Origin: Patescibacteria group bacterium UBA918
GTDB lineage: Bacteria; Patescibacteriota; Minisyncoccia; Phycocordibacterales; UBA918
NCBI GenBank assembly: GCA_002293845.1
Contig: DBEA01000010.1
Coordinates: 565 to 64,564, forward strand
Reading direction: 5' to 3'
DNA: 64,000 nt
Shown: positions 1 through 15,671 of the stretch, in pieces
Layout: the number at the start of each line of letters is the position of its first letter
Position numbering within the stretch: position 1 is the first letter of the stretch
Notes under the pieces: model-generated
What the model was told of the DNA's origin: nothing
Seen by the model: only the letters and a program-made list of their open reading frames with translations
The model's database searches: none
Translations under genes and position numbers: made by a program

Positions 1-1016
1 ATTAGATATTTCTATCCTGTTTTCAAAAACTGCAACCTGAGTGTAGGTTTCATTAATACTATAATCACGATGAATTACGGCATTTGCAACAATCTCTCGA
101 ATTGCATCGGGCGGATACTCGTATCTTTCAACCCTCTTTGTCCCAACTATCTTCGCGCTTAAAGATATGTTTTTAAGTATAAACGCCTGCATGCTCTCAA
201 TTTGTTCATCCAGGCTACCTTCCAATTCAATCTTATCCACGATAGGAGATGCAGAAGTATTACCTTTATACCGAATACAGCGAATAATAAAACGTTTGAA
301 ATCTTTATGCTGCTGTGGAACATTGGAAGAAAATATTAAATATCCTGCATTTGTAGGTGTAAGGACATCATCAACTGAACAGCAAATGCCCACATTTTCT
401 GTGACATGCTTTACAGATCCTACTTGACTCAAAAAACTAGTGTCACGGCCTTTTTTTGTAGCACTTTTCTTTAAGAACTCTTTAATTTTAGGTAAAGACA
501 AATCATTGAAGTTCCCACCAGTAACTGGTAAATGATCGTATTTAAAAGGTGTGGAGTTTCTGATAAACTCTCTAACTTCGTCCGCTGTTAGAACTTTATC
601 GACATTTTTAATTCTTATGCATGCACCATGATGCATTCCCTCAGATTTTCTGTAACAAGGTTTTTTCTCGTCTGCAATTGGCGAAACTATGCAAACTAAC
701 AACTTTTTTCCTTTATATTCAACAACTTCAAATCCAGGATCGGTACAATTAACCATATCTTCACGACAGTAGTTGATTAAACCTTCCTGAAAAGTAGCTA
801 TGTCTTCAATTCCCACAACTTTAAATGTCTTGTCATTATTTTCTTTAACTCCGTACACAATCAAGCCACCGTCTGGTCGATGAGAGAAAGATGAAATAGA
901 TTTCCACACCTGTTTACCAGAAAAACCACCTCTGCCGTCTTTAAATTCTACACATTCAGTTTCAACGCTATTTTGTTCGGCAGAAGCAATGAGTTCCAAT
1001 ATCCTTTCCTTTGTCA
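1..1016 (-). CDS. ATP-binding protein with AlbA_2 (Schlafen-like, divergent-AAA) DNA-binding domain. Only the N-terminal part is in the window; the gene runs off the window start.
   Basis: Reverse-strand ATG near 1016. It is absent from the ORF track because there is no in-window stop. Hand translation gives MTKERILELIASAEQNSVETECVEFKDGRGGFSGKQVWKSISSFSHRPDGGLIVYGVKENNDK..., whose E-x-LEFK block is typical of the AlbA_2 fold. The segment is visibly AT-richer than the rest of the window. Confidence 0.5.
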
Positions 1017-1174
1017 TAATCAGCAAATCATAACATTTATCACTACATCTGTTGCTCTTGTACAAAACTCGGCAAGAAATTGTACTCACTTTCTATAATA
1101 CTGGTTCTAACTTCCAGCAATCCTGTGCACAAATAAAGCACACTAAGTATCGGTAGTCAGCGCGGTCATCATGC

Positions 1175-1180
1175 TATGAT
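1175..1180 (+). promoter_or_regulatory. -10 hexamer TATGAT with a 6-nt spacer (TTTCGC) to ATG 1187, a leaderless-type promoter
   Basis: Direct read of catgcTATGATtttcgcATG. Confidence 0.4.
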
Positions 1181-1186
1181 TTTCGC

Positions 1187-1996
1187 ATGAGGTCTTATAT
1201 ATTCGCGGTCGCGATCATGATGTTCGTCTTGCCGATCGTAGCGACGGCGCAGGCCGGTGGGCTAGTGCCATGTTCAGGTCCGGATTGCACCACTGAGTCG
1301 GTGGTCGGTCTGGTCAATAATCTCATCGACTGGCTCATTTCGGCGCTGGGAGTCATCGCGGTCATCGTGATGGTCTATGCCGGTTTTAAGTTAGTGATGT
1401 CGGCCGGAAACGAGGATGAATGGGGTAAGGCGAAGGAATTGTTCCAAAATGTCATCATCGGCATCATATTGATATTGGCCGCTTGGCTCATAATCGACAC
1501 CGTGTTGAAAGGTCTGACCGGTAAAGGATTGGACGGCTGGACCAAAGAGTTGGCCGCTCCCGTTCCGAATGTGAACAATCCGTCGATCACCGGAAATTCT
1601 AATGTCGCCGGCGCAGGCCAGTATACCGACACAGAGGCACGTCAGGCTTTGGCCGCGGCCGGGATAACGGTATGGGAATCGTCTCCAGGTGCCACTAGCC
1701 TCGCCAATATCAATCAGGCCACGATAAACGAAGCCGTGAGTCTCAAACAGGCTTGTGGTTGTCAGGTGATAGTGACAGGTGGCACGGAGTCCGGAGTTCA
1801 CGCGAGCGGACAATATAGTCACTCTTCAGGTTATAAGATAGATCTCGACGATACATCCGGTCTCAATAATTACATCACGAGCAACTATACCTATGTGGGA
1901 CCACGAAGCGGTGACGGAGCTCTGATGTATCGCTCATCCGATGGCAAGAAAATATACGCTAAGGAAGGGGACCATTGGGACGTGTTGGTGCAGTAA
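1187..1996 (+). CDS. Secreted TrbC/VirB2-like pilin-domain protein with a C-terminal putative peptidase-M15-like (Zn D-Ala-D-Ala carboxypeptidase fold) domain
   Basis: Signal peptide MRSYIFAVAIMMFVLPIVATAQA, then two hydrophobic helices split by a short loop (LISALGVIAVIVMVYAGFKL...VIIGIILILAAWLIIDTVL), as in T4SS pilins. The C-terminal 150 aa carry VTGGTESGVHASGQYSHSSGYKIDLDD, resembling the M15 S-x-H-x-x-G-x-A-I-D zinc-ligand block. Confidence 0.4.
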   Translation: MRSYIFAVAIMMFVLPIVATAQAGGLVPCSGPDCTTESVVGLVNNLIDWLISALGVIAVIVMVYAGFKLVMSAGNEDEWGKAKELFQNVIIGIILILAAWLIIDTVLKGLTGKGLDGWTKELAAPVPNVNNPSITGNSNVAGAGQYTDTEARQALAAAGITVWESSPGATSLANINQATINEAVSLKQACGCQVIVTGGTESGVHASGQYSHSSGYKIDLDDTSGLNNYITSNYTYVGPRSGDGALMYRSSDGKKIYAKEGDHWDVLVQ

Positions 1997-2053
1997 ATTC
2001 GTTAAAAACGAATTTCGAAATGGTATTATGTAGCATATATTCATGCTACGAAA

Positions 2054-2713
2054 ATGAAACAGATAAAGAAGCAAGAAGCGTTTAATTTAAGAAAAAGTGG
2101 TTATTCCTTGAGAGAGATTAGTAAAATGTTAAATATCTCTCAAAGTACAGCCTCTGTCTGGCTCAGAGGTTTGAGGTTGCCCCCTTCTGCGATCAAAGAA
2201 TTGGCAAGGAAGACAGAAAATGGCAGGAGACAAGCTTCGATCGCTAGAAGGGATGAAACGCGCAAGGCCCTAGCAAGCGCAGCGACACTGGCGCAGGAAA
2301 CGAAAAAAAGGGCAAAATATGACAGGGCTGATCTGAAGATAATGTGCGCCATGATCTATCGGTGTGAAGGTTCAAAAACCATGAACGATAGCGCGCTAGT
2401 GTTTACGAATTCAGATCCAGAATTAATATCGTTTTTTCTTAGATTGTTCAGAAAAACCTTTAAAGTAAATGAGGAAAGGTTCCGGGTTTTAGTCCATTTA
2501 CATGACTATCATGACCAAGAAACACAGTTGCGTTTTTGGTCCAAAGTCACTAATATACAACGGTCGCAGTTTTTAAGGCCTTATAAGAAAAGTAATACCG
2601 GCAAGCATAAGAGGTCGAATTACGAAGGGTGTGTTTCATTGCGCTATCACGATGTGAGGATAGCCAGAGAAATACAGGCCTTGGCCAGAATTGTGATGAA
2701 ATCGGGCCTATAG
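2054..2713 (+). CDS. HTH-domain protein with a C-terminal single-motif LAGLIDADG-like endonuclease domain
   Basis: N-terminal HTH (YSLREISKMLNISQSTASVWL). C-terminal LKIMCAMIYRCEGSK resembles the LAGLIDADG motif-2 of the two other HEG ORFs (LRGLIQTDGSV, LRGLYEAEGSL). AT-rich. The TAG stop (2711-2713) lies inside tRNA-Trp. Confidence 0.45.
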   Translation: MKQIKKQEAFNLRKSGYSLREISKMLNISQSTASVWLRGLRLPPSAIKELARKTENGRRQASIARRDETRKALASAATLAQETKKRAKYDRADLKIMCAMIYRCEGSKTMNDSALVFTNSDPELISFFLRLFRKTFKVNEERFRVLVHLHDYHDQETQLRFWSKVTNIQRSQFLRPYKKSNTGKHKRSNYEGCVSLRYHDVRIAREIQALARIVMKSGL

Positions 2714-2774
2714 TTTAATGGTAAAACAGCCGCCTCCAAAGCGGCCGTTCCCTGTTCGAGTCAGGGTGGGCCCG
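2704..2774 (+). tRNA. tRNA-Trp (anticodon CCA)
   Basis: Cloverleaf read by eye: acceptor GGGCCTA/TGGGCCC, D stem GTTT/AAAC, anticodon stem GCCGC/GCGGC with loop CTCCAAA, T arm CCCTG-TTCGAGT-CAGGG, discriminator G. No encoded CCA. Confidence 0.8.
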
Positions 2775-2776
2775 CA

Positions 2777-3673
2777 CTATTTACGCTCCAGAAAAGCGCT
2801 GACTTCAACAGTGATTTTATTGTCGCCGCGATGAAACCATCTGATCTCTCGATCACGTCTCAGCCAGGACATTTGGCGTTTAGAAAACTGCCGGCTCTTT
2901 ATGGTCAGTTCTTCGATCATTTCATTCAAGGGCATGAGGCCGCGAAGATAACGAGAAAGATAACGATACTCAAGGCCAAATTTTTCAAGCCTCTCATGAG
3001 TGACCCCCTTCTTCAGTAGTCGCCTCACTTCCTCTGCCATGCCTGCGTCTAGTCGTTCCAGAATTCTAGTTTTCAATACTTCACCGTGAGTCTCCATATC
3101 TACCATTAATCCGATGGTGAGAATCGCGTATGGACATTCTTTAACCTCTGTCTCCGGGACGCGGCCGAGTGAACGAGCGATCTCAATGGCGCGGATCAGT
3201 CGGCGCGGATTTTCTTTTTCTATAGACTGGGCTCTTGCCGGATCTAGTTTTTCTAATATCTCGAACAATTCGGCGGCACTTTTTTCTTCGAGTTCGGCGC
3301 GCAGTTCCTCGTCGGGCTCAACGTCAGGTAACGACGTTTTGCCTAAGAGAGCATCGATGTAGAAAAAGGTGCCGCCGCAAATTATCGGTAATTTTCCTCG
3401 CGCGATGATGTCGTCGATGGCGAGTAGCGCATCGCGCTTGAAGTCGGCGGCGGTATACACCTCTTTCGGATCGGCGACGTCGAGCAGGTGATGCGGCACA
3501 CCGTCCGTTTCTTTCGGCGTCACTTTGGCCGAGCCGATATCGAGGCCACGATATACTTGCCTTGAGTCGGCCGATATCACCTCGCCATCGAACTTTTTCG
3601 CCAATTCGATCGCCAATCCGGTCTTTCCGGAAGCGGTCGGTCCGACGATGACTATGATCTTAGATTTGGTCAC
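2777..3673 (-). CDS. miaA: tRNA dimethylallyltransferase
   Basis: P-loop IIVIVGPTASGKTGLAIELAKKF and overall MiaA-like sequence. GTG start, with TATATT 7 nt upstream. Confidence 0.85.
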   Translation of the reverse strand: MTKSKIIVIVGPTASGKTGLAIELAKKFDGEVISADSRQVYRGLDIGSAKVTPKETDGVPHHLLDVADPKEVYTAADFKRDALLAIDDIIARGKLPIICGGTFFYIDALLGKTSLPDVEPDEELRAELEEKSAAELFEILEKLDPARAQSIEKENPRRLIRAIEIARSLGRVPETEVKECPYAILTIGLMVDMETHGEVLKTRILERLDAGMAEEVRRLLKKGVTHERLEKFGLEYRYLSRYLRGLMPLNEMIEELTIKSRQFSKRQMSWLRRDREIRWFHRGDNKITVEVSAFLERK

Positions 3674-3731
3674 AAGGGGGAATATACCCCTATGCTGACT
3701 TTTTGTATAGGCTAAGTCGATTTAATTGTAC

Positions 3732-4325
3732 TCAACATATTTGCTCGTTCTCTTTTTTCAAACTTATCTCGGCGATAAATCTATTTACGTCACGAGATAA
3801 CCTCACCGTGTATTTAGGGCGGCTGCTTTTTTGGCTCGCGCTATAAATTTTTGGTTGATAGCCGAGTATTTCCATCATACTCTTCACATCCGTGGCCAGA
3901 TCTAAAATATTATTGGTAAAATTCACCATCTTGTAACCGCGGTCTGAATAGACACTCCCATCTGTCTGTATTAATCCACGAAGGCAAGCTGAGATGTACA
4001 TATTGTCGCGAAATATCCAACCAGGTACTCTGACGTTCTGTTTAAATTTTGAGCCCTTACCCACTTTCCACGGCATATAGATATCTAGTGCGTTTGAATA
4101 CACACTAATGTTGAAATAGGTATCGCGGGGACCGTTTACTTTACTGACTTTATTTTTGGGAAATAGTAAGTTAAGGGCAATACATATATCGTTTTCTATG
4201 CCTGGATAGGCCGCGTCACATGTTATTCGAAGACGTGTGGCACGTTTATTGGGTCTGGATAAATTACCATCGCCCATAGCGACTCCAATGATATATGCCA
4301 AATTTACTTTGGCAGCCATTAGCAT
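3732..4325 (-). CDS. LAGLIDADG homing endonuclease (two-motif, free-standing)
   Basis: Motifs LAYIIGVAMGDGNL and LRGLIQTDGSV. AT-rich. TATAAT 6 nt upstream of the ATG. Lies 35 nt downstream of tRNA-Leu on the same strand. Confidence 0.8.
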   Translation of the reverse strand: MLMAAKVNLAYIIGVAMGDGNLSRPNKRATRLRITCDAAYPGIENDICIALNLLFPKNKVSKVNGPRDTYFNISVYSNALDIYMPWKVGKGSKFKQNVRVPGWIFRDNMYISACLRGLIQTDGSVYSDRGYKMVNFTNNILDLATDVKSMMEILGYQPKIYSASQKSSRPKYTVRLSRDVNRFIAEISLKKENEQIC

Positions 4326-4359
4326 GCCTAGATTATACCCTGGTTGTGCTTCAAAATTG

Positions 4360-4443
4360 TGCCGCGGGAGAGACTTGAACTCTCATGACTGTTTAGGTCG
4401 ATGGGTTTTGAATCCATTGCGTCTACCATTCCGCCACCGCGGC
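4360..4443 (-). tRNA. tRNA-Leu (anticodon CAA), type II with long variable arm
   Basis: Reverse complement GCCGCGGTGGCGGAATGGTAGACGCAATGGATTCAAAACCCATCGACCTAAACAGTCATGAGAGTTCAAGTCTCTCCCGCGGCA. Anticodon loop TTCAAAA, T arm GAGAG-TTCAAGT-CTCTC, acceptor GCCGCGG/CCGCGGC. Close to E. coli leuX. The anticodon stem has one A-C mismatch, or I misread one base. Confidence 0.7.
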
Positions 4444-4582
4444 AAGCAAGAGGAGTTTAGCAGAAATATCGCCTATCCACAAAGCCCTTTTTCCTTATGA
4501 TACAATCTAATAAATCACGAAAAAGGTGACGTTTTTGGGCGAGTGATTTTTCCATTTTGAGATTTCAATTTTAAATTTTCCT

Positions 4583-5734
4583 ATGTCTTTTCAAGGCGAT
4601 TCCATCTTCTGGGTAGAACTCGACAAGATCGTACCGAACCCGTTCCAGCCACGCCGAGAATTCGACGAGGCAAAGCTAAAAGAACTGGCCGAATCGATAC
4701 GCATGTATGGCGTCCTACAGCCTCTCACCGTCACTCGCCGCGAGCGTTCGCGTGACGACGGTACTTTTTTTAGCGAGTACGAACTTATCGCCGGCGAACG
4801 GCGTTTGCGCGCCTCCAAGATAGCAGGATTGTCTCAGGTGCCGGTCATTATCCGCCAGGGAGAACAGACCGAGCAGGAAAAACTCGAGTTAGCCATCATC
4901 GAGAACCTGCAACGCGAGGATCTCAATGCCGTCGATCGCGCGATGGCGTTCCAGCAACTGAATCAGATGTTCAATTTGAATCACGTGCAGATCGCCGCCA
5001 AGATGGGCAGGAGCCGCGAATATGTGTCGAACACACTCAGACTTTTGGCTTTGCCCGAGACCATCTTGAACTCTTTACGTCGCGGCGAGATCAGCGAAGG
5101 ACATGCCCGCGCGCTCTTGATGCTCGCCGACCGACCGCAAGAACAGGACGTCTTATATCGCGAGATCTTGCTCAAGAAGATCTCGGTGCGCGAGACCGAA
5201 CGTATCTCTCGCAAGATCGCCACCGAGAGAGTACGTAAACATCAGTGGCGCGACACGGATCCGACTTTGATCGAGATCGAAAAGAAGTTCACCGAGAGTC
5301 TGGGTACGCGCGTCCAGATCAAAAAGACCGAGTTCGGCGGCACTGTCAGCATCGACTATTTCGACCCTTCCGAATTGCAAAAGTTGCTTTCACTGCTCGA
5401 TAAGCCGTCCGGCGTCGTCGTGACCCCCGGCTCTCTCGAAACCAGCGATACCGTGAGCGACACTTTGAAGGAGGAAGCGGCCGAAGCCAACGAGGTGATC
5501 GCTAAGCTCGAGGAGAATACGCCGCTCGAAGCGGCGTCGTCGGGGCCCTTGCCGCCGGCGCTCGATACCCTGGTCACGCCTCCGGAGGTAGATACATTAG
5601 TGACACCGCCACAAGTTAGGCCTAGAGAGGATATAGTCGTTGAAACTTCGAGGGAGTTACTGAACAAGATCAGTGAGTCTAGAAAGGAGAATGACGAAAG
5701 CGACATGTATTCCATAAAAAACTTCAACGTTTAA
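4583..5734 (+). CDS. parB: ParB/Spo0J chromosome partitioning protein with a long acidic/Pro-rich C-terminal extension
   Basis: ParB box region IVPNPFQPRREFDEAKLKELAESIRMYGVLQPLTVTRR and HTH GLSQ...AAKMGRSREYVSNTLRLL. C-terminal tandem DTLVTPPEV/DTLVTPPQV repeats. No parA adjacent. Confidence 0.85.
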   Translation: MSFQGDSIFWVELDKIVPNPFQPRREFDEAKLKELAESIRMYGVLQPLTVTRRERSRDDGTFFSEYELIAGERRLRASKIAGLSQVPVIIRQGEQTEQEKLELAIIENLQREDLNAVDRAMAFQQLNQMFNLNHVQIAAKMGRSREYVSNTLRLLALPETILNSLRRGEISEGHARALLMLADRPQEQDVLYREILLKKISVRETERISRKIATERVRKHQWRDTDPTLIEIEKKFTESLGTRVQIKKTEFGGTVSIDYFDPSELQKLLSLLDKPSGVVVTPGSLETSDTVSDTLKEEAAEANEVIAKLEENTPLEAASSGPLPPALDTLVTPPEVDTLVTPPQVRPREDIVVETSRELLNKISESRKENDESDMYSIKNFNV

Positions 5735-5736
5735 GA

Positions 5737-5772
5737 GAAATGAAAAGCGGGCCCAGGCCCGCTTTTCATTTC
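5737..5772. terminator. Bidirectional intrinsic terminator (17-bp perfect stem) between convergent parB and rel
   Basis: GAAATGAAAAGCGGGCC-cag-GGCCCGCTTTTCATTTC with A/T flanks. Confidence 0.7.
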
Positions 5773-7305
5773 TCCAATTCCGCGCGGATGTGTCGTCGGG
5801 CCATGGTGGTCTTGGCCGATTCCAGCCACTTGCGCGTCGGTTTTGCGTTCTTCTTGGTCACTATCTCCACAATGTCGCCATTCTTTAGTTCGGTGTCTAG
5901 CGTGACGAGTTTGTTGTTCACTTTGGCTCCCGAGATCTGATTGCCGACCTCCGAGTGGATGGCGTAGGCGAAGTCTATCGACGTGGCTCCGACCGGCAGG
6001 TCTACCACATCACCGATCGGGGTGAATACGAAGATGCGATGCGTGAAAAAATCGTTCCGCATATCCTCGACGAACTCCGCTCCGGAATCCGGCGCGGAAT
6101 ACATTTCGCCGATCTGGCTGATCCATAGCGGGATCTTCATTTTGGCCGGCGCGTCTTTAGCTACGGCCTCGGTCTTGCCGCTACCGCGTCGGGAGAAAGG
6201 GCGGAACAGACTCGGTATGAGCTGAGCGAACCAGTTTTCCGAACGGTTCTGCGATTGGCCGCTCTGGGAGTTTTTGTAGATGATGTGCGAAGCGATGCCG
6301 TACTCCGCTTCCTGATTCATCTTTTCGGTGCGGATCTGAATCTCGAGGATGTTGCCGCTACTGGTAGCTACGGTAGTGTGGATCGATTGGTAACCGTTGG
6401 GTTTCGGGAAGGCGATGTAGTCTTTGACGCGTTGCGGCAACGGCCGCCACATGTCGTGAATCACTCCGAGCACTTTGTAACAATCCTCCATATTGCCCAA
6501 GACCACGCGCATAGCTAAGAGATCGTACACCTGGTCGATGTCCCAGCTCTTGCGCTTCAACTTTTGATAGAGGCTATATAGACCTTTGACGCGATAAGAA
6601 GTATTGAAATTACGGATACCCGCCTCGGCCAGTTTCTTTTGTAAGGCCTTCCGCTCGCGCTCTAGACGCTCCTCGTACTTGCCGATCTTGTTCTTCAAAA
6701 GCTCCAGCACTCGTTTGTGCTCCTCGGGATAGACGTAGGGGAAGGCCAAGTCTTCGAGTTCTTTGCGGATACGGCCCATGCCGAGGCGGTGAGCCACTGG
6801 CACGTATATCTCCAAGGTTTCCCTGGCGATGCGCAGACGCTTCTTCTCCGGCACATGCATGAGGGTCGTCATATTGTGGAGTCGGTCCACCAGCTTGATG
6901 ATCAACACACGAATGTCCTGGCTCGTCGCTACGAACAATTTGCGCAACGATTCGTTGTGTCGATCGCTGCCGTAGTACCTGACAGAAGAGAGTTTGGTCA
7001 CTCCCTCCACCAGGAATAAGATCTCCTCGCCGAAATCGCGACGGATATCCTCTTCGGTGATGTCCGTGTCTTCAATGGTGTCGTGAAGTAGCGCGGCGGC
7101 TACCGTGCGCGCACCCATACCCATCTCAGCGAGGCGGAGGGCCACTGCCGTGACGTGAGTCATATAGGGCTCGCCGGAATAGCGAGTATGGTCAGCGTGC
7201 GCCCTGGCGGCCACGTCGTAGGCTTTGGTGACGAGCGCCTCGTCCTCCTTGGTCGGAGAAGAAAGGTGGCCCACAATATCCTTGACGGAGATCATTCGTT
7301 CAGTA
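5766..7305 (-). CDS. rel: Bifunctional (p)ppGpp synthetase/hydrolase, RelA/SpoT family (HD + synthetase + TGS; short form)
   Basis: HD motif LLHDTIEDT, synthetase region and TGS domain (GDVVDLPVGATSIDFAYAIHSEVG). The track start is 7349. I place the start at the internal ATG 7305 (MISVKDIV...): TATACT sits 6 nt upstream, and the distance to SGEPY matches SpoT N-termini. Confidence 0.8.
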
Positions 7306-7544
7306 TAAAGCGCAAAGGCGAAAGTGGAAAGTGATTCTCGCTTTGACACGATCCGCTAATTGCTCTAGGCTATGTTTTTGGAGAGTAGAGGAGAGGGGAA
7401 TGAAAGAGCCACAGAAGCCGCCGAAACCCCAGATTTGTTCGATATGCGGGTATCGTGTCGCAGTACCTTGCGACACGGGGAAAAAAGGGTATTGCCCCCA
7501 GCTTCGTCAACCTGCACTCAAGTCGGCGAAATAAGAATGACGAA

Positions 7545-7569
7545 ACGGCGCGAGCTCTGCTCGCGCCGT
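7545..7569 (-). terminator. Intrinsic terminator downstream of topA
   Basis: ACGGCGCGAGC-tct-GCTCGCGCCGT followed on the minus strand by a U-rich tract (ttcgtcattcttatttc). Confidence 0.55.
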
Positions 7570-7575
7570 CGTTCG

Positions 7576-9960
7576 TTACTTCATGAGCGCTACAGCTTCC
7601 TCCACCGTCATTTTCTCGACGTCAGTGTCTGATGGAAGCATGATCCGTTTGAAACCGCGTTTGAAATATCGTCCCGACTTTGATTCGTATACGCTGATCA
7701 TCTTCTTGGTCTTCGGGTGCGGACCGACGTCGCGTACCAAGGTTTCCCCCTTTCGGGTGCCCTTTGGTTTTTTCAATATCTCCAGAGCGCGATCAAAAGT
7801 GATGGTGTAGGGATCGTCGCCGTCTTTAGGTTTGAGGGAACGGAAGTCGCCGGCGTGACCGATGTAAGGACCGAACCGGCCGACGTTGGCGATCACTGGT
7901 TCTCCGGTTTCCGGGTGCTGGCCCAACTCCCGCGGCAAGGTTAGATAGGTGAGCGCTTCCTCCAAGGTGACATCTTCTGGCTTTTTGCCTTTAGGTAAAG
8001 AGGCGCGCCGCGGCTTGGGCGCTTTTTTGCCTGCCCGTACCGCTTTGCCGGTTTTCGGGTCTTTCTTGTCGGGCGTCTCGCCTTGCTGAACGTAAGGCCC
8101 GAATCGACCGTTTAGAACGTAGATCGATTCTCCCGTGTCCGGATGTCGGCCGATAGGTTCTTCGGCTTTCACTTCCGAACCGTCGATCAATCTAGAGCCG
8201 GTACATTCGGGGAAGTCGACGCATGATAGGAACTTGCCGCTCTTGCCCAACTTGATCACCATCGGCTTGCCGCAGATCGGACAGGGGAATTCCGCCGGGG
8301 CCGCACCCAGGTTGGTCTGCTTTTCTATGTCTTCCTTACTGGCCAAGTCCTTGAGGAACGGTCCATAAAAATCGCTCAGAGTCTTAACGTAAGTACGTTT
8401 GCCCTCCGCGATCTCGTCGAGTTCGTCCTCCATCTCGCTGGTGAAAGTGTCGGAGATGTAGGTGGGGAAATGGGTTTCGAGGAAAGTCGAGACGACGTCG
8501 CCGGTGTCGGTCGGGATGAGAGTGCGACCTTGTTTCTCCACATAACCGCGCTGGTTCAGCGTCTCCATGATGGAGGCATAAGTGGAGGGTCGGCCGATGC
8601 CGCGCTTCTCGAGTTCTTTGATCAGTCCGGCTTCGGTGTAGCGGTTCGGCGGCTCGGTGGCTTTCTCTTCGATCTTCACTTCGGCGACTCGGGCAGTATC
8701 TCCGATCTTGACCGGCGGCACCTCGGTGTCCTCGCCGCGCGCGGCCAGGTCGACTTTGAGCCAACCGTCGAAAGTGACACGAGAGCCGTTCACCGCGAAG
8801 TCCGGTATTGTTTCTTTAGAGTCTTTCAAATTGATTGTGATCTTGGTGCGCAATACGAGAGCGTCGGCCATCTGCGAGGACATGGTTCGCCGCCAAATGA
8901 GATCGTATAACGCCTGCTCGTCACCGGTATGTCCGGCGCTTTTCACGTTGGCGTTCGTAGGGCGGATGGCTTCGTGCGCTTCCTGCGCCGACTTACTCTT
9001 GGTTTTGTAGACACGCGGTTGAACATATTTCTCGCCATGTTCTTTGTGAAGGATAGCCAAGATCTGTGACAGCGCCGCCTTGCTCATATTGGTCGAGTCG
9101 GTGCGCATGTAGGTGATGAAACCGTTTTCGTATAGTTTTTGCGCGGCCCGCATGGTGCGCGAGGGAGAAAAGCCGAGTCGTGTCGAAGCGGTCTGTTGCA
9201 GGGTCGAGGTGGTGAACGGCGCGCGAGGCGAACGTTTCTGTGACGCCTCCTTCATATCCTTCACTTCCCATGAGTTGGACTCGCCGATCTTTTTGATTCG
9301 ATCCGCTTCCGAGTGCTCCTTAGGTGTTTCGACGCAGGTAAATGGCACGTCCTTGTGGTCTCCAAGTGTTGTAGGTGCCGTCAAGACGAAATATTTCTCC
9401 GGCACGAAGGCGCGAATCTCGCGCTCGCGCTCCATGATGATGCGGAGAGCCGGCGACTGCACGCGGCCGGCCGAGAGTCCGTAACGAACCTTTTTCCAAA
9501 TAAGACCCGACAGATCGTAGCCGACCAGACGATCGAGCACACGCCGCGCCTCCTGCGCCTCTTTGAGATTCATATCGATCGCTCGCGGATGCTGCAAAGC
9601 TTCCTTTACGGCATCTTCGGTGATCTCATGAAAGACGATGCGTTTTAGTTTCTTGTTAGAGCCTTTGATGAGTTCGGCCACGTGCCAGGCGATAGCTTCT
9701 CCCTCTCGGTCGGGGTCGGAGGCGAGTAGCACGGCATCGGCCTTTTTAGCAGCGGCTTTGAGATCGCTGATCACTTTTTCCTTCCCGGGGGAGACGATAT
9801 AACGCGGCACGAAACCGCCGTCGATATCGACAGCGTCCTTGTTGGACTTCGGGAGGTCGCGCACGTGTCCGACCGAAGACTTCACCATATACCCGGAACC
9901 CAGGTATTTGGCGATGGTCTTGGCTTTCGAGGGCGACTCGACTATGACCAGAGTACTCAT
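7576..9960 (-). CDS. topA: DNA topoisomerase I
   Basis: TOPRIM N-terminus MSTLVIVESPSKAKTIAKYLG, catalytic core, C-terminal Zn ribbons (CPICGKPMV...CVDFPEC). dprA lies immediately upstream in the same orientation. Confidence 0.9.
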   Translation of the reverse strand: MSTLVIVESPSKAKTIAKYLGSGYMVKSSVGHVRDLPKSNKDAVDIDGGFVPRYIVSPGKEKVISDLKAAAKKADAVLLASDPDREGEAIAWHVAELIKGSNKKLKRIVFHEITEDAVKEALQHPRAIDMNLKEAQEARRVLDRLVGYDLSGLIWKKVRYGLSAGRVQSPALRIIMEREREIRAFVPEKYFVLTAPTTLGDHKDVPFTCVETPKEHSEADRIKKIGESNSWEVKDMKEASQKRSPRAPFTTSTLQQTASTRLGFSPSRTMRAAQKLYENGFITYMRTDSTNMSKAALSQILAILHKEHGEKYVQPRVYKTKSKSAQEAHEAIRPTNANVKSAGHTGDEQALYDLIWRRTMSSQMADALVLRTKITINLKDSKETIPDFAVNGSRVTFDGWLKVDLAARGEDTEVPPVKIGDTARVAEVKIEEKATEPPNRYTEAGLIKELEKRGIGRPSTYASIMETLNQRGYVEKQGRTLIPTDTGDVVSTFLETHFPTYISDTFTSEMEDELDEIAEGKRTYVKTLSDFYGPFLKDLASKEDIEKQTNLGAAPAEFPCPICGKPMVIKLGKSGKFLSCVDFPECTGSRLIDGSEVKAEEPIGRHPDTGESIYVLNGRFGPYVQQGETPDKKDPKTGKAVRAGKKAPKPRRASLPKGKKPEDVTLEEALTYLTLPRELGQHPETGEPVIANVGRFGPYIGHAGDFRSLKPKDGDDPYTITFDRALEILKKPKGTRKGETLVRDVGPHPKTKKMISVYESKSGRYFKRGFKRIMLPSDTDVEKMTVEEAVALMK

Positions 9961-10015
9961 ATATATAATGATCGTGCCCTACACAAATACCACAGAATCT
10001 CGGAAGGTGAAAATA

Positions 10016-10879
10016 TCAACCAAGTTTTCGGTACATCCCGCCGTCCTCTTTGATGAGGCCGTTCATCTCCATACGCATCAAAATAATAGCGACCGACTCG
10101 GTCGGAAGCTCTGAGCGGCGGATCAAAAGATCGCGTTCTTGCGGTTCGGAAAGCAGGTTGATGATGGTCTGTTCTTCGAGCGACAAAAGGGGAGTGAAAC
10201 TCGGCGCGCGGTCGTCTTTGATCTCGATCCCGAGCGTGTCGAGAATATCGGCCGCTTCGGTGACCGGCCGCGCGCCGAGTTTCATAAACTGATGCGTACC
10301 TTTGGAATTGTCCGAAAAGATGCTCCCGGGCACCACCAGGAGTTCACGATTATAGTCGACGGCGAGACGAGCGGTGATCAGGGAACCGCTTTTTTCGCCG
10401 GCTTCGATTATGAGCGTAGCTTGCGATATTCCCGCCACCAATCGGTTACGCTCCGGAAATGACCAGGTGATGGCCTTGAAATCGGGATCGTATTCGGAGA
10501 GTAGCCCGCCGCCTTCTTCGAGTATTTTGTGCGCCAATCGCAAGTGAGCGCGGGGATAGATGACGCCGTCACTTAAACCGCCGCCGGGAATGGCCAGTGT
10601 GTATAGACCGTTATCGATAGCCGTTTGATGCGCCAGCGAATCGATACCGAGTGCGAGGCCGGATACTATTCCTATATTATGTCCGCGTAGTCCGGAGATG
10701 AGGTGGTCGACGACTTGCTTGCCATAGTTGGTGTATTTGCGCGAACCGACGACCGACAACAGCTTCATTTTCGGGTCGGGCAGCACGCCGCGATAATTTA
10801 GCCGCTTCGGTGGTTGGGGAATTTCAAAAAGGGCTCGGGGAAAATCACTTTTTGCTAGTTCATCGACGGGGAAGTCCAT
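10016..10879 (-). CDS. dprA: DNA processing protein DprA (Smf)
   Basis: VVGSRKYTNYGKQVVDHLISGLRGHNIGIVSGLALGIDSLAHQTAI Rossmann-like DprA core. TAGAAT 7 nt upstream of the ATG. Confidence 0.8.
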   Translation of the reverse strand: MDFPVDELAKSDFPRALFEIPQPPKRLNYRGVLPDPKMKLLSVVGSRKYTNYGKQVVDHLISGLRGHNIGIVSGLALGIDSLAHQTAIDNGLYTLAIPGGGLSDGVIYPRAHLRLAHKILEEGGGLLSEYDPDFKAITWSFPERNRLVAGISQATLIIEAGEKSGSLITARLAVDYNRELLVVPGSIFSDNSKGTHQFMKLGARPVTEAADILDTLGIEIKDDRAPSFTPLLSLEEQTIINLLSEPQERDLLIRRSELPTESVAIILMRMEMNGLIKEDGGMYRKLG

Positions 10880-10902
10880 TCCTTACATTCTAACATCTAA
10901 TA

Positions 10903-10932
10903 CTTGACAAAAATCTTGATTTGTGTATAATA
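10903..10932 (+). promoter_or_regulatory. Near-consensus sigma70 promoter TTGACA-16nt-tgTATAAT
   Basis: cTTGACAaaaatcttgatttgtgTATAATag read directly. No protein gene follows for about 250 nt. Confidence 0.6.
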
Positions 10933-10938
10933 GAAGTT

Positions 10939-11090
10939 GTACCACACACCTACGGCATAGAGTGTGGTATGACCAGGGCGCTTGAGGCGCTCCATTGCTA
11001 GGGGTCGGTTTTTAATTTGAGGGGAGACAGTGCCGACAATGTCTCCCCGTTTCAAGTCTGCGTTAGGTAATCGCAGGCTTTTTCTTTTGT
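10939..11090 (+). ncRNA. Candidate small RNA or structured leader between the strong promoter and an intrinsic terminator (CTGCG-ttaggtaat-CGCAG + GCTTTTTCTTTT)
   Basis: Internal hairpins CCACAC/GTGTGG and GGGGAGACA-gtgccgacaa-TGTCTCCCC. No convincing ORF. The overlapping minus ORF 10897..11124 has no RBS and a low-complexity tail. Confidence 0.3.
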
Positions 11091-11127
11091 CTAAAATCTC
11101 GCTTTGCGCTATTGTATAATCCAAGTT

Positions 11128-11152
11128 AGCTGTGGGCGGCCCGTAGGGCCGC
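11128..11152. repeat. GC-rich tetraloop hairpin GTGGGCGGCCC-gtag-GGCCGCCCAC in the serS 5' region; a member of the terminator-hairpin family but without a U-tract
   Basis: Same stem as the secY terminator at 55172 (GGGCGGCCC-gcag-GGCCGCCC). Confidence 0.5.
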
Positions 11153-11187
11153 CCACCGCTACCACTTTAATTCCTATTTGTTAGCGC

Positions 11188-12489
11188 ATGCTCGACATCA
11201 AATTCATCCGCGAGAATCTGGACATCGTCAAAATGGCGGCCACTAAAAAGAAGATCAAGATCGACCTTGATCGCCTGGTCGCGGTGGACGATTCGCGTCG
11301 CGAAATTATGACGAGACTCGAATCTCGCAAGGCCGAGCAAAACATGGCCAGTAAGCGTATCGCGGCGGAGTCTGAGCCGGGCAAGCGCGCTGTTTTCATC
11401 GGCGACATGCAGAAGCTAAAGACCGAGATCCAAGCGGATGAGGAGGCGCTCAAACCGATCATGGAAGAGTGGCAGGTATTGATGCTTCAGGTGCCGCAGG
11501 TGCCCGACATGACCGTGCCAGACGGCGATAGCGACGCCGATAATGTCGAGGTGAAAAGCTGGGGCGATACCACGCACTTCGATTTCGCGCCGCAGACCCA
11601 CATCGATCTGATGCAGAAGCTCGGCATGGTGGATTTCGACCGCGGCACCAAAGTGCACGGCTTCCGTGGCTACTACCTCATTAACGACGGCGCCCTTTTG
11701 TCTTGGGCCATTTGGAATTACGCCAACGAATTCTTCCTCAAGAAGGGGTTCAGTCCGATGTTGCCGCCGACCATCGTGCGTAAGGCGAACCTATACGGCA
11801 CCGGACACTTACCGAACGACGCCGAAGACGTTTACCATACGCAAGATGACGATTATCTCATCGGTACCAGCGAGGTGTCGACCATGGGCTATTACACCGA
11901 CGACATCCTCGAGAAGTCGCAGTTGCCGATCAAGCACCTTTCTTTCTCTCCTTGCTATCGCCGCGAAGCCGGCAGTCACGGCAAAGACGTCAAAGGTCTC
12001 ATCCGCGTCCACGAATTCTACAAAGTGGAGCAGGTGGTCTTGTGCGAGGCCAGCCACGAAGAGTCGGTTAAGTGGCACGAGTGGATCAATCGCAATACCG
12101 AAGAGTTTATCGAGACTCTCGGTATCCCATATCACACCGTGCTCAACTGCGGCGGAGATATCGGTCAGGGCCAGGTCAAGAAGTACGACATCGAACTTTG
12201 GGTGCCGATGGAACAAAAGTATCGCGAGATCAGCTCGGCTTCCTACTTCCATGATTTTCAAACGCGTCGTTTCAACATCCGTTATCGTGACGAAGACCCT
12301 AACGCGCCTGAGGGCGCGCGGGCCGGAGGAAAACTGCGCTACGCTCACTCCCTAAACTGCACCGCCATTCCGACCCCACGCATCCTGGTTTCGTTGGTGG
12401 AGAATTTTCAGCAAGCCGATGGTAGCGTGAAGATCCCTGAACCGCTCCAGAAATACATGGGCAAGGCCGTTATCTCTAAGGCATCTTAG
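11188..12489 (+). CDS. serS: Seryl-tRNA synthetase
   Basis: N-terminal coiled coil MLDIKFIRENLDIVK... and class II core motifs (…FRGYYL…, GSHGKDVKGLIRVHEF). Confidence 0.9.
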   Translation: MLDIKFIRENLDIVKMAATKKKIKIDLDRLVAVDDSRREIMTRLESRKAEQNMASKRIAAESEPGKRAVFIGDMQKLKTEIQADEEALKPIMEEWQVLMLQVPQVPDMTVPDGDSDADNVEVKSWGDTTHFDFAPQTHIDLMQKLGMVDFDRGTKVHGFRGYYLINDGALLSWAIWNYANEFFLKKGFSPMLPPTIVRKANLYGTGHLPNDAEDVYHTQDDDYLIGTSEVSTMGYYTDDILEKSQLPIKHLSFSPCYRREAGSHGKDVKGLIRVHEFYKVEQVVLCEASHEESVKWHEWINRNTEEFIETLGIPYHTVLNCGGDIGQGQVKKYDIELWVPMEQKYREISSASYFHDFQTRRFNIRYRDEDPNAPEGARAGGKLRYAHSLNCTAIPTPRILVSLVENFQQADGSVKIPEPLQKYMGKAVISKAS

Positions 12490-12525
12490 GTAACCTCCGA
12501 AAACCCGATCCCCGGCCGTGATAAT

Positions 12526-13413
12526 ATGGCCATGATGTTCGGTCGCAAGAAAAGATCGAGACGCAATACTCGTAAATATCGCGGTTCTTTGCCGACGCAG
12601 TTTTGGGTAGGCATGATCTTGTGCGTCGTCTCTATCCTGATCCTTGGTACGGTGTGGTTCGTTACCAGACTCGAATCTTTGACCATCGCCGACGTGCGCG
12701 TGTTCGGCGGTGAGACGATCGATCGCGAAGCGGTCAGGAAAACTGTGACGGCAGAACTCGAAGGCGAATACTATCGTTTGGTGCCGCGGCGCTTCCTCTG
12801 GACCTATCCCGAGGAGGCAGTGCGCGCCAAGGTGAGCGCCTGGCAACGTGTGAGCGGGGTTAGCCTAGCTATTTCGGAGGACGACACACTGGACGTTTAT
12901 CTGGAAGAGTATCTGCCGTACGCGCTTTGGTGCGTTGACGAGTTGAGTGTCGTGCTCTCCCATCCTTGTGTCTTTCTGGATATTTCCGGCCGGGCTTTCT
13001 CGGTGGCGCCACCGCTTATCGGTACCGCCTTGTTGCGCTATCACAACGGTAAGACACCAACGCTCGGGGAGACGCCGTTTTTGGCCGAACTACTAAGAGA
13101 TACCGATCGTTTCGTGTCGGAGCTAAGAGCGCGTTTCGGTTTCGACGTGGCGGTGGTGGAATCGGTCGGCCAAGACGAAGTGTCTTACTATTTGCGCGGC
13201 GGCGGTATCTTAAAGACGACTCTGCGTCGATCGGTCGAAGACACTCTAGACGACCTCACCGTCATTTTGGCCTCTAAACAATTCGAACATATCCGTCCTG
13301 GTAACTTCGCTTACGTCGATCTGCGTTTCGGCGACAAAGTGTTCGTCAACGAACAGGGAGGTCTGGAGGACGAACAGTTAAACGCCGCCTCGGAAGGTGA
13401 GGCGGCGTTCTAG
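12526..13413 (+). CDS. ftsQ: Cell division protein FtsQ/DivIB-like (POTRA domain)
   Basis: Basic N-terminus, one TM helix, POTRA-like VRVFGGETIDREAVRKTV, C-terminal FAYVDLRFGDKVFV matching the FtsQ ISYVDLRY block. The extended -10 TGaTAATAT overlaps the first ATG, so the true start may be Met3/Met4. Confidence 0.65.
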   Translation: MAMMFGRKKRSRRNTRKYRGSLPTQFWVGMILCVVSILILGTVWFVTRLESLTIADVRVFGGETIDREAVRKTVTAELEGEYYRLVPRRFLWTYPEEAVRAKVSAWQRVSGVSLAISEDDTLDVYLEEYLPYALWCVDELSVVLSHPCVFLDISGRAFSVAPPLIGTALLRYHNGKTPTLGETPFLAELLRDTDRFVSELRARFGFDVAVVESVGQDEVSYYLRGGGILKTTLRRSVEDTLDDLTVILASKQFEHIRPGNFAYVDLRFGDKVFVNEQGGLEDEQLNAASEGEAAF

Positions 13414-13429
13414 ATACAGGGCCAGCAAA

Positions 13430-13600
13430 TCATTTGCTGACCAGGGTTTGCTCGACCTTGGCGATCTGGTTCTTCTTGATGGTTTCGGCCACGTCGCGAC
13501 CGGAACTCCAGGCAAAGAACCAGATGAAGGCTATGAGTAGTACCCAGTCGATCAGGTTCACCTGATCTTTGTCGTAACTGTCTTTTGACTCGTTTGCCAT
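13430..13600 (-). CDS. Small membrane protein (56 aa), hypothetical; below the ORF-track size cutoff
   Basis: Perfect SD AAAGGAGGT 6 nt before the ATG. MANESKDSYDKDQVNLIDWVLLIAFIWFFAWSSGRDVAETIKKNQIAKVEQTLVSK, with one TM helix. Confidence 0.55.
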   Translation of the reverse strand: MANESKDSYDKDQVNLIDWVLLIAFIWFFAWSSGRDVAETIKKNQIAKVEQTLVSK

Positions 13601-13673
13601 CGGAACCTCCTTTGGTGGCTATATAATTTAGCCATTATTTTCAACATTTTGCAAGTCGTGTTAGTCTGAGCCG

Positions 13674-14696
13674 GTGAATTTTTGGAAAGACCTGCCAAAA
13701 CCCATATTCGTTTTAGCGCCGATGGCGGACGTCACTGACGCGGCTTTTCGACGGATGATCGCCAAGTATTCCAGACACGCGCGGGCTGACGGCAGCGCAG
13801 GCGGACCGGATGTTTTTTGGACCGAGTTCGTCTCCGCCGACGGCTTGGCCCGGGCGACCGACGAAGGAAAAGCCAAACTCATGGCCGACCTTATCTATAG
13901 TGAAGAAGAGCGGCCGATAGTGGCGCAGTTATTCAGTTCGAACGAAGAATATATGGAGCAAGCCGCCGCACTGTGTCGCGAACTAGGCTTCGACGGCATC
14001 GATATCAACATGGGCTGTCCGGACCGTTCGATCGAAAAGCAGGGTTGTGGCGCGGCCATGATCAAGAATCCGGCGAAAGCTCGTGCCATCATTCGAGCCG
14101 CGAAGCGCGGCGCCGGTCCTTTGCCGGTGTCGGTCAAAACTCGCGTCGGTTACAACAAGGACGAACTTGAAACATGGTTGCCGGAGATCTTGGCCGAGAA
14201 TCCGGCCGTGGTCACGGTGCACGCGCGTACTCGGAAAGACATGTCAAAAGTGCCGGCCAGGTGGGAGAGAGTGACACGCGCGGCCCTGATCCGTAATGAA
14301 CTCAAGAGTGATACTTTAATTTTTGGCAACGGCGACGCCTTGTCGCTTGAAGACGCGAAACAGAAAGCGGAGCTTGCCGGCGCCGACGGCGTGATGTTGG
14401 GAAGGGCCATTTTCGGCAATCCTTGGCTTTTCCATCCACACAAGGACCTGTCGAACGTGTCTCTGGAAGAGAGGTTCAGTGTTCTTGTCGAGCATACCAA
14501 GCTCTTCGAGGAGCTACTGCCGCACAAGAGTTTCGCTATCATGAAGAAGCATTACAAGGCGTACGTGCACGGCTTTCCCGGCGCGGCCGAGCTCCGGGCC
14601 GAGCTGATGGAAGCCAAGGATGCGCGCGAGGTGGAGGTCATCGTTACTGAATATCTTCACCCCAGTGTTAATAAGTGGTGGAGGTTTTGGCGTTAG
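13674..14696 (+). CDS. dus: tRNA-dihydrouridine synthase
   Basis: FVLAPMADVTDAAFRRM FMN-binding signature and TIM-barrel Dus core. GTG start. Confidence 0.85.
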   Translation: MNFWKDLPKPIFVLAPMADVTDAAFRRMIAKYSRHARADGSAGGPDVFWTEFVSADGLARATDEGKAKLMADLIYSEEERPIVAQLFSSNEEYMEQAAALCRELGFDGIDINMGCPDRSIEKQGCGAAMIKNPAKARAIIRAAKRGAGPLPVSVKTRVGYNKDELETWLPEILAENPAVVTVHARTRKDMSKVPARWERVTRAALIRNELKSDTLIFGNGDALSLEDAKQKAELAGADGVMLGRAIFGNPWLFHPHKDLSNVSLEERFSVLVEHTKLFEELLPHKSFAIMKKHYKAYVHGFPGAAELRAELMEAKDAREVEVIVTEYLHPSVNKWWRFWR

Positions 14697-14712
14697 GCCT
14701 TATACTTAAAGC

Positions 14713-15625: not shown

Positions 15626-15640
15626 TCGAGTGTTACGTAA

Positions 15641-15671
15641 AACGGCCGGCACTGAAAGTGCCGGCCGTTTT
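15641..15671 (+). terminator. Intrinsic terminator
   Basis: AAAACGGCCGGCAC-tgaaa-GTGCCGGCCGTTTTCG. Confidence 0.7.

Follow-up and report, generated by a model that had tools for sequence, protein, structure and literature searches.

Three families of LAGLIDADG genes, each locked to a single tRNA gene in Paceibacteria, as candidate homing elements carrying a replacement tRNA part

The stretch of DNA analysed here (64,000 nucleotides (nt), hereafter the window) belongs to the Patescibacteria group bacterium UBA918 (contig DBEA01000010.1, positions 565 to 64,564 of the forward strand) and contains three tRNA genes in all, as detected by ARAGORN over its whole length, each of them directly adjoined on its own strand by an open reading frame (ORF) of the LAGLIDADG type (Table 1). 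The same three tRNAs were recovered by Rfam in bases 1–20000 (E ≤ 0.1), with scores of 54–64 bits against RF00005, in agreement with the tRNA genes proposed by the original prediction, a first reading made from the letters of the window. All three are continuous and no intron was matched by Rfam in that same interval and at that same threshold, so that ORF1, ORF2 and ORF3 have to be regarded as free-standing genes rather than intron-borne ones, as had been anticipated. The architecture described for ORF1, a helix-turn-helix (HTH) followed by a single LAGLIDADG motif, was borne out by the sequence, as was its unusual end (...AAA TCG GGC CTA TAG), where the stop codon coincides with nucleotides 8–10 of tRNA-Trp. 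Two positions had to be amended: ORF2, correctly described as a two-motif protein preceded by a TATAAT box 6 nt before its ATG, is separated from tRNA-Leu by 33 and not 35 nt, whereas the third case, located as claimed next to tRNA-Gln, ends at 18481 and not at 18558. The GC content of the three ORFs (0.418, 0.406 and 0.445 for ORF1, ORF2 and ORF3, respectively) is lower than those of miaA (0.507), parB (0.542) and the whole window (0.525). Searches with the three family profiles found no further member of these families among the other ORFs of the window.

Table 1. Position of the tRNA genes, the adjoining LAGLIDADG-type ORFs and their associated signals in the window (L numbers denote loci of relatives).
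Feature	Position	Strand	Identified by	Remarks
tRNA-Trp(CCA)	2704–2775	+	ARAGORN, Rfam	10-nt overlap with ORF1
tRNA-Leu(CAA)	4359–4443	−	ARAGORN, Rfam	3′ end 33 nt upstream of ORF2, same strand
tRNA-Gln(CUG)	18488–18559	+	ARAGORN, Rfam	begins 6 nt past the ORF3 stop
ORF1	2054–2713	+		219 aa; N-terminal HTH plus single LAGLIDADG domain; motif ...MIYRCEGSK...
ORF2	3732–4325	−		197 aa; two-domain LAGLIDADG, I-DmoI type; motifs GVAMGDGN, LIQTDGS
ORF3	17777–18481	+		two-motif LAGLIDADG protein; motifs VILGDGH, LYEAEGS
Pilin–ORF1 promoter spacer	1997–2023	+	alignment of window, L001 and L169	L001 keeps here a 23-nt old opposite-strand tRNA-Trp piece; decayed in the window
ORF1 extended −10-like element TGgTATTAT	2021–2029	+	promoter scan	TTAAAA-16-TATTAT preceded by TG; conserved in L001
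ORF1 leader inverted repeat GTAGCAT-ATATTC-ATGCTAC	2030–2049	+	read from sequence	perfect 7-bp stem, 4 nt before ATG
ORF2 TATAAT box	4332–4337	−		6 nt before ATG, between tRNA-Leu and ORF2
tRNA-Gln D-arm copy TCTAATGGTAGAAAAT	17744–17759	+		~tRNA positions 10–24, upstream of ORF3; unique in the 64-kb window
ORF3 extended −10-like element TGcTATTAT	17762–17770	+	sequence	6 nt before ATG

The LAGLIDADG nature of the three proteins is supported at different levels. ORF2 matches the Pfam family LAGLIDADG_3 (E 1.4e-12), and its AlphaFold model (pLDDT 94.3, pTM 0.91) aligns in Foldseek along its full length with I-DmoI (E 7e-10, TM 0.65–0.75, ~195 columns, ~22% identity), followed by matches to I-Tsp061I, PI-SceI and WhiA. 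ORF3, which shares 29% identity with ORF2 (E 1e-17), matches the same Pfam family (E 3.5e-8) and keeps both motifs, and its family profile detects I-DmoI with an E value of 0.0067. In this way, the fold expected for these proteins was confirmed by structural comparison for ORF1 and ORF2, with WhiA among the structural matches, and is backed by the Pfam match in the case of ORF3. By fold and family, ORF2 and ORF3 are monomeric two-domain LAGLIDADG enzymes, for which cleavage is predicted, and ORF1 combines an HTH with one LAGLIDADG domain and would have to dimerise. Family alignments reveal that the acidic residue closing each LAGLIDADG helix is invariant (D19 and D122 in ORF2, D69 and E168 in ORF3, E105 in ORF1), and the whole C104-E105-G106 stretch is invariant across the ORF1 family. 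The relationship of ORF1 to the other two families is weak: hhalign gave E 0.0078 (probability 5%) against the ORF3 family, E 0.13 against the ORF2 family, and aligned CEG with the second LAGLIDADG motif; BLASTP found nothing between ORF1 and ORF3, and a search of ORF1 against PDB sequences returned nothing useful. The ORF2-family profile found only weak BamA matches among PDB sequences, which were treated as chance, NCBIfam gave only sub-threshold matches to intein or transposase HTH models, and no phage homologue of ORF3 was found.

The names of homologues assign the host to the Parcubacteria/Paceibacteria branch of the candidate phyla radiation (CPR). A comparison covering more than 150 related genomes revealed that each of the three ORFs represents a different LAGLIDADG family and that, in Paceibacteria, each family is tied to a single tRNA gene: the ORF1 family occupies the 5′ side of tRNA-Trp(CCA), the ORF2 family the 3′ side of tRNA-Leu(CAA), and the ORF3 family the 5′ side of tRNA-Gln(CUG). 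In the case of the ORF3 family, 113 relatives came out of a scan that took a single genome from each species, and 80 loci were fetched (49–67% identity), where a same-strand tRNA-Gln(CUG) follows the ORF in all 74 complete loci, the contig ending less than 65 nt past the ORF in the remaining six. The gap between the stop codon and the tRNA ranges from −15 to +39 nt, with a mode of 3–4 nt (33 loci). Among 80 metagenome loci of the ORF2 family, tRNA-Leu(CAA) precedes the ORF in 69, including 34 loci with a gap of 5 nt or less and 23 with one of 6–40 nt (usually containing a TATAAT box). The TATAAT-then-ATG layout seen in the window is repeated in L169, L170, L090, L097 and L148, and the ATG stands immediately past the tRNA discriminator base in L100, L107, L114, L124 and L128. 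Several of the 11 loci with no detected tRNA-Leu (e.g., L104, L111, L129 and L140) lie too near the contig start to judge, and L130 shows a weaker T-arm-like stretch beside the ORF2 homologue. A particular case is L166 (1850–1965), where a tRNA-Leu-like 3′ end, GGTTCGACTCCGACCTCGGGCACCA, stands directly upstream of the ORF2 homologue and ARAGORN calls no tRNA; judging from its sequence, this tRNA-Leu gene may have decayed or be split, as an intron would do.

The ORF1 family follows the same rule, as tRNA-Trp(CCA) was found after the ORF in 7/7 lineages whose DNA was read, with the ORF ending anywhere from 15 nt inside to 26 nt before the tRNA. A word-indexed search had returned only 12 relatives, which made the family look rare, a view overturned when an exhaustive profile search yielded 371 cluster representatives with E ≤ 1e-30, the majority of the 150 best having ~220 aa and aligning over nearly the whole profile. 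Linkage at such frequencies in the three families excludes chance adjacency. Far from homologues being restricted to positions unrelated to tRNAs, the sole member seen away from its tRNA is a distant one of the ORF1 family (L063, 4021–4665; profile E 2e-25), placed ~250 nt downstream of a tRNA-Gln(CUG) and with no tRNA detected by ARAGORN at its 3′ end. In the same line, a fourth group of LAGLIDADG_3 proteins overlaps tRNA-Tyr in L002–L004 and L106. On the other hand, not all tRNA genes have such a partner: an adjacent ORF was observed at none of the ten tRNA-Thr genes of the fetched loci, although the majority of these genes are so close to the end of the locus that no judgement is possible.

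When each locus was scanned for partial copies of its own tRNA, remnants of tRNA genes appeared on the opposite side of many of these ORFs. In the ORF3 family, 57 of 81 loci contain, with ≤3 mismatches and at 13–33 nt from the start codon, the upstream motif TCTAATGGTAGGAAAA, which corresponds to tRNA-Gln positions ~10–24 plus an A-run and has a TGnTATAAT-like box 5 or ~15 nt past it across the family. Of 55 loci compared, 17 additionally keep the acceptor strand TGCGGGATC upstream. The copy in the window, TCTAATGGTAGAAAAT, occurs a single time, with 0 occurrences expected by chance. This upstream motif is conserved in sequence while the D-stem of the functional tRNA-Gln covaries, frequently as GGC/GCC, TGC/GCA or GGTG/CAC where the copy keeps GTC...GGA; the allele of the window is GGTGTAAAGGTAGCAC, and the contrasting form of the D-arm is GTCTAATGGTAGGAC. 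The functional D-stem is often, but not always, unlike its upstream copy (both are the same in L039). Gene conversion between the two D-arm copies was considered as the cause of the conservation of the motif and ruled out, since the motif remains unchanged even in loci whose functional D-stem is different. From its sequence and position, the upstream copy would be either a native 5′ fragment left behind by an insertion or a conserved site for a putative binding protein.

In the ORF2 family the duplicated part is the opposite end of the tRNA. Past the stop codon, the T-arm and 3′ acceptor strand of tRNA-Leu are present as a second copy in L131, L158, L133, L119/L120 and L150, with a match of 27/27 nt in L131, where the TGA stop lies inside GTGAGGGTTC. 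Similar copies were recognised by eye in L108, L111, L132, L138/L139, L146 and L161, and under a strict threshold (at least 16/22 matches) such remnants are present in 6 of 67 loci, compared with 0.15% of control windows. The two-copy layout, that is, a functional tRNA and a tRNA remnant around the ORF, amounts then to these 57 of 81 and 6 of 67 loci and, within the ORF1 family, to L001 only. Break points fall at the boundaries of cloverleaf arms, after the D-arm in Gln and Tyr, and before or within the T-arm in Leu and Trp. The tRNA-Tyr example comes from L170 (7792–7960, minus strand), with a 36-nt direct repeat made of 10 nt of the tRNA-Tyr leader plus positions 1–26, located 143 nt upstream of tRNA-Tyr and with no ORF in between. 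This repeat may have been left behind by the deletion of an endonuclease gene, or else represent a miniature element.

Five syntenic loci sharing the order parB, tRNA-Leu, miaA, tRNA-Trp and pilin (the window, L001, L002, L169 and L170) offered the possibility of following these genes among close relatives, for which the identities of miaA, parB and relA give the host tree (L002,(L170,(window,(L001,L169)))). The window, L001 and L002 carry ORF1, whereas L169 and L170 have a tRNA-Trp without it. ORF2, in turn, is shared by the window, L169 and L170 and missing from L001 and L002, the tRNA-Leu(CAA) of L001 being a second example of an empty or alternative site. Consequently, L001 and L169, with ParB proteins 95% identical (83% between L001 and the window), differ at both tRNA loci. 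The tRNA alleles segregate together with the ORFs. Thus, the window and L001 have the same tRNA-Trp (100% identity), to which the one shared without change by L169 and L170 is only 69% identical, a figure to be compared with 81% for miaA of such a relative. ORF1-bearing and ORF1-free alleles share the same acceptor stem and differ by eight anticodon- and T-stem pairs altered on both sides. Similarly, tRNA-Leu of the window is 95–96% identical to those of L169 and L170, which also carry ORF2, and 67% identical to the divergent tRNA-Leu of L001. Among the sampled relatives, therefore, both ORF1 and ORF2 combine presence or absence at the same locus with co-inherited tRNA alleles. L001 also contains pyrF-pyrE between tRNA-Leu(CAA) and miaA (1953–3435), in the place of ORF2, and the whole tRNA-Leu side of this locus has been replaced.

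The tRNA-Trp locus keeps even more details of such an exchange. The orientation of tRNA-Trp relative to miaA is reversed in the loci bearing ORF1. A stretch of ~765 nt comprising the promoter, ORF1 and a new tRNA-Trp stands in place of 98 nt of L169, which are composed of the initial 49 nt of the tRNA-Trp gene and the 49-nt spacer to miaA. Between the pilin gene and the ORF1 promoter of L001, positions 206–228 (GCGGGCCCACGAGGAATCGAACC) reproduce without mismatches (23/23), on the complementary strand, the 3′-terminal nucleotides of the L169-type tRNA-Trp, a fragment that a fuzzy search finds in L001 only. Read in this way, the alignment, which compares filled and empty sites as the original prediction had proposed, shows an ORF1 cassette that destroyed the resident tRNA-Trp and supplied its own one, and ORF1 gives the clearest trace of recent movement among the three families. 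The stop codon inside tRNA-Trp, for its part, is not a designed coupling of both genes: ORF1 of L002 ends with TAA just before the first nucleotide of tRNA-Trp, and a 4-nt difference in the lineage of the window and L001 extends the frame into the tRNA, where U8-A9-G10 reads as a stop, so that the overlap is better seen as a lineage-specific accident. Altogether, partial tRNA duplications and co-segregating tRNA alleles indicate that insertion involves the tRNA gene itself. The suggestion that conserved tRNA genes serve as homing or landing sites is in this way supported, with each family tied to one isoacceptor and one side, and the initial picture of endonuclease genes parked next to tRNAs is refined.

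We consider it probable that the three families consist of homing-endonuclease elements directed at tRNA genes and equipped with a substitute for part of the tRNA. Such an element would enter at one of the arm edges mentioned above and would bring with it a replacement of the displaced part of the tRNA or, as in the ORF1 cassette, a whole tRNA, so that the tRNA gene would be kept working at the DNA level instead of through a self-splicing intron. The ORF would thus end up between an intact tRNA and a dead tRNA fragment. The enzyme would cut the ORF-free allele of the tRNA gene, and repair would then copy in the ORF with the replacement arm plus acceptor strand, or with the whole tRNA, the tRNA halves serving as homology arms. 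The carried allele would escape cutting through compensatory changes in paired stem positions, of the kind seen in the ORF1-linked tRNA-Trp.

The spacing between ORF and tRNA, usually of 0–6 nt, leads us to expect a shared transcript, from which both products would be separated by normal tRNA end-processing; in the case of ORF1, a cut at the 5′ end of the tRNA would strip the message of its stop codon. Moreover, −10 boxes located 6 nt before the ATG, or ATGs placed right after the discriminator base, predict leaderless mRNAs. A consensus promoter and terminator scan gave results scarcely above those of shuffled sequences and missed these −10-only promoters. The conserved D-arm copy upstream of ORF3 could act as a protein-binding site or as a homology arm, and the inverted repeat in the ORF1 leader, also present in L001 (GTAGCA...TGCTAC), could be either an RNA hairpin or a palindromic operator. 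Only tentatively would we go one step further and regard these genes as active members of an undescribed class of bacterial mobile elements, in which a homing-endonuclease gene residing in the leader or trailer of a tRNA would cut ORF-free alleles and supply a new arm plus acceptor strand or a whole tRNA, with tRNA end-processing taking the place of splicing, and compensatory stem changes that of the immunity conferred by synonymous codons.

The nearest known parallel would be the mobile ORFs (mORFs) of fungal mitochondria (atp6 in Allomyces macrogynus; atp6, atp9, cox2 and nad3 in Glomus), which consist of a free-standing LAGLIDADG or GIY-YIG gene accompanied by a foreign end of the target gene (PMC3630166). 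Their insertion produces a working hybrid gene, and the native end, differing in sequence, stays beyond the ORF as a dead duplicate (PMC3630166). The layouts described here, tRNA-Leu followed by ORF2 and a tRNA 3′ fragment, or a tRNA-Gln 5′ fragment followed by ORF3 and tRNA-Gln, closely resemble this organisation. They differ, however, in their location in a bacterial chromosome instead of a mitochondrion, in having a tRNA and not a protein gene as the target, in the use of both 5′ and 3′ ends of that target, with a whole inverted tRNA in the ORF1 family, and in their fixation across a whole bacterial class. Furthermore, an element in a tRNA has no synonymous codons through which to escape and would need compensatory stem changes.

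A second precedent, put forward in the original prediction, is that of the seg genes of phage T4, a comparison that holds for the lifestyle but not for the type of enzyme. SegB is a GIY-YIG gene lying between phage tRNA genes that drives the inheritance of the tRNA region with co-conversion of flanking markers (PMC2988022). As in the T-even seg and mob genes, the endonuclease gene sits between genes and not in an intron, the so-called intronless homing, whereas the ORFs of the window encode LAGLIDADG proteins in cellular genomes. Free-standing endonucleases of phages have their expression damped by promoters and by hairpins near the start codon (PMC2988022), which the 7-bp inverted repeat of the ORF1 leader recalls. 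The partial duplication of a tRNA, or a rule of one family per isoacceptor, is something that we do not know of among the seg genes.

Within the CPR bacteria themselves, the ORFs found in rRNA insertions mostly belong to LAGLIDADG_1, with LAGLIDADG_3 in 16S insertions only (PMC11270868), and the group I introns of Patescibacteria tRNAs have been reported to contain HNH and not LAGLIDADG genes, with no mention of flanking ORFs (PMC13011429). The host group, the enzyme superfamily and the targeting of conserved RNA genes are the same as in the present case, but those genes reside inside self-splicing introns, of rRNA and a few tRNA genes, and ours are intron-free members of LAGLIDADG_3; continuous tRNAs with no intron match do not correspond to intron-encoded tRNA endonucleases. 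A full-text literature search found no published account in which free-standing genes of the LAGLIDADG type are linked to bacterial tRNA genes and accompanied by partial tRNA duplications.

The most serious competitor of a homing element is a domesticated gene. According to this explanation, which we judge rather unlikely, ORF2 and ORF3, and perhaps ORF1, would be LAGLIDADG host genes, vertically inherited and no longer mobile, that act in the manner of WhiA as regulators binding a tRNA-derived motif at their own promoter to control the ORF–tRNA operon. A good number of observations weigh on its side and against homing. The ORF2 and ORF3 families appear, from sequence comparisons, to be old, long fixed and mostly vertically inherited. 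Their GC content tracks that of the host flanks (r 0.86, slope 0.74 and offset −0.064 for ORF3; r 0.81 and offset −0.089 for ORF2), so that the AT richness of ORF1 and ORF2 relative to miaA and parB, although real, reflects a family-wide offset and has to be discarded as a sign of recent horizontal arrival. The ORF3 family is conserved at the level of housekeeping genes, with a mean pairwise identity of 57%, to be compared with 42% for FtsX, 53% for PrfB and 60% for PyrG, and its distances correlate with those of FtsX and PrfB (Mantel r 0.52–0.54, p 0.001) and weakly with those of FtsE and PyrG. More than 93% of the copies are intact and full-length (78/80 in the ORF3 family and 75/80 in the ORF2 family). 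Synteny is also conserved: prfB-ftsE-ftsX (or pyrG) stands ahead of the ORF3-family gene in many lineages, with a variable region past tRNA-Gln, and the arrangement prfB-ftsE-ftsX-ORF-tRNA-Gln is widespread. Even ORF1 shows identities that follow those of miaA (76 vs. 80% and 48 vs. 53%), which is what vertical inheritance predicts. Conservation, intactness, GC tracking and synteny, nevertheless, are as compatible with a selfish gene that became fixed as with a domesticated one.

The D-arm copy raises further difficulties for homing. Its persistence among proteins that are only 50% identical points to selection, either as an operator or as a homology arm, instead of a neutral scar, and its two distances to the −10 box, one helical turn apart, would suit an operator. 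In L039, L029, L067 and L079, the functional tRNA-Gln D-arm is identical to the upstream copy, and, if the cut site spans the junction, such a carrier would cut itself. In the same direction go the lack of any recognisable tRNA-Leu remnant past ORF2 in the window, the selection of the ORF3-family loci through the ORF, which leaves ORF-free tRNA-Gln(CUG) loci outside the sample, and the fact that site-specific DNA cleavage by the three proteins is a predicted activity. To these points can be added the structural matches to WhiA and, for ORF1, the combination of an HTH with a palindrome in the leader.

WhiA carries two degenerate LAGLIDADG domains devoid of catalytic acids and a C-terminal HTH. 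Sharing with it the LAGLIDADG fold and, in one case, the presence of an HTH, the proteins of the window depart from this scheme in several respects: ORF1 has its HTH at the N-terminus, a single LAGLIDADG domain and an invariant Glu, and ORF2 and ORF3 lack an HTH according to Pfam and conserve both catalytic acids. ORF2 scores 20.8 bits against LAGLIDADG_WhiA, under the cut-off of 23.2, though one source annotates ORF2 as “WhiA”. We therefore do not classify these genes as WhiA-type regulators. Moreover, domestication sits uneasily with the differences in presence and absence among close relatives and the accompanying swaps of tRNA alleles, with recent scars that are 100% identical to the tRNA in L001 and L131, and with disrupted copies in L068, L087, L098, L100 and L136. 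ORF1 is dispensable as well, since ten other tRNA-Trp genes, found in Parcubacteria loci that had been selected through ORF2, have no adjoining ORF1. Finally, domestication offers no account of why each family would need its own tRNA.

Much less credible, in our opinion, is that the three ORFs are leftover edge genes of larger integrase-borne islands attaching at tRNAs, with the tRNA fragments as attachment-site duplications made by a recombinase. Genomic islands and prophages do share with our elements the use of a tRNA landing site whose integrity is preserved through the duplication of a tRNA segment at the distal end of the insert, and the ORF2 family, with an intact tRNA, the element and a 3′ fragment, reproduces this classic layout. 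A large serine recombinase gene is encoded just beyond tRNA-Gln, on the opposite strand, in 12 of 80 ORF3-family loci (among them L009, L029, L030, L033, L045, L047, L052, L053, L066, L082 and L088), a recombinase gene on the opposite strand overlaps the 3′ end of tRNA-Trp in L175 (3170–4690) and L176 (2009–3535), and many contigs end at or just past the tRNA-Gln of the ORF3 family and tRNA-Trp. The recombinases at these 3′ ends indicate that the same tRNAs are integration sites for other mobile elements too. However, the unit bounded by repeats is, in dozens of lineages, the endonuclease ORF alone, of ~0.6–0.75 kb and with no recombinase inside; housekeeping genes such as ftsX, pyrG and miaA directly flank it; and ORF1 and ORF3 occupy the 5′ side of their tRNAs, with the 5′ part duplicated in two families, whereas the recombinase genes are located past the 3′ end and in the opposite orientation. 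A unit holding only an endonuclease ORF does not fall within the class of integrase-mediated tRNA islands. As for a coincidental packing of unrelated genes in a small and gene-dense genome, for which the window offers the general density of its genes (the stop codon of miaA lies 1 nt from tRNA-Trp), it is refuted by the comparative data, given a linkage that is specific for isoacceptor and side despite differing outer neighbours, and the tRNA-derived repeats flanking the ORFs.

The genomic neighbourhood of the three homing-element candidates includes genes for a type IV secretion pilin, miaA, parB, relA/spoT, dnaX, a histidine phosphatase, a zinc-finger protein and a diacylglycerol kinase. The zinc-finger gene (17443–17718), just upstream of the ORF3 unit, encodes a protein of 91 aa with two tandem treble-clef repeats (Pfam zf_Tbcl_2, E 5.8e-15), and in many relatives its place is taken by ftsX or pyrG. 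The region upstream of the pilin gene (1–1150), with a very low GC content (0.35–0.38), looks like a strain-variable island, since contigs of the same species contain there a 407-aa gene with no Pfam match (L005) or a 479-aa AlbA_2/HATPase_c_4 gene (L006 and L007). A second patch of low GC (0.42–0.46) at 14700–15650 comprises a membrane-like ORF of 92 aa and a Lys/Ala-rich one of 138 aa, neither of which is recognised by the profiles of the three endonuclease families.

Homing endonucleases are considered to persist in essential genes by residing inside self-splicing introns or inteins. In the tRNA genes of these bacteria, the problem that introns and inteins solve has apparently been solved otherwise, with an element placed in the part of the tRNA transcript that is trimmed away and bringing with it a spare piece of the tRNA. 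From a practical point of view, the families would provide from several hundred to thousands of natural LAGLIDADG variants, each of them beside a candidate target of ~20 bp in a tRNA gene, which would be useful for the study of meganuclease specificity and for their engineering. They may also explain some oddities of the tRNA loci of CPR bacteria, such as allele swaps between close relatives, pseudo-tRNA fragments and breaks in the assemblies, and they would represent a bacterial case of mRNA ends set by tRNA processing, with predicted leaderless messages. If domestication turned out to be the right explanation, we would be facing a new class-wide family of LAGLIDADG regulators tied to particular tRNAs, which would be equally undescribed. 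If, instead, they are active members of a new class of mobile elements, the conserved D-arm copy would double as a homology arm and an autoregulatory site, and the pressure of endonucleases would be one of the forces shaping the stems of tRNAs and the turnover of tRNA loci in CPR bacteria.

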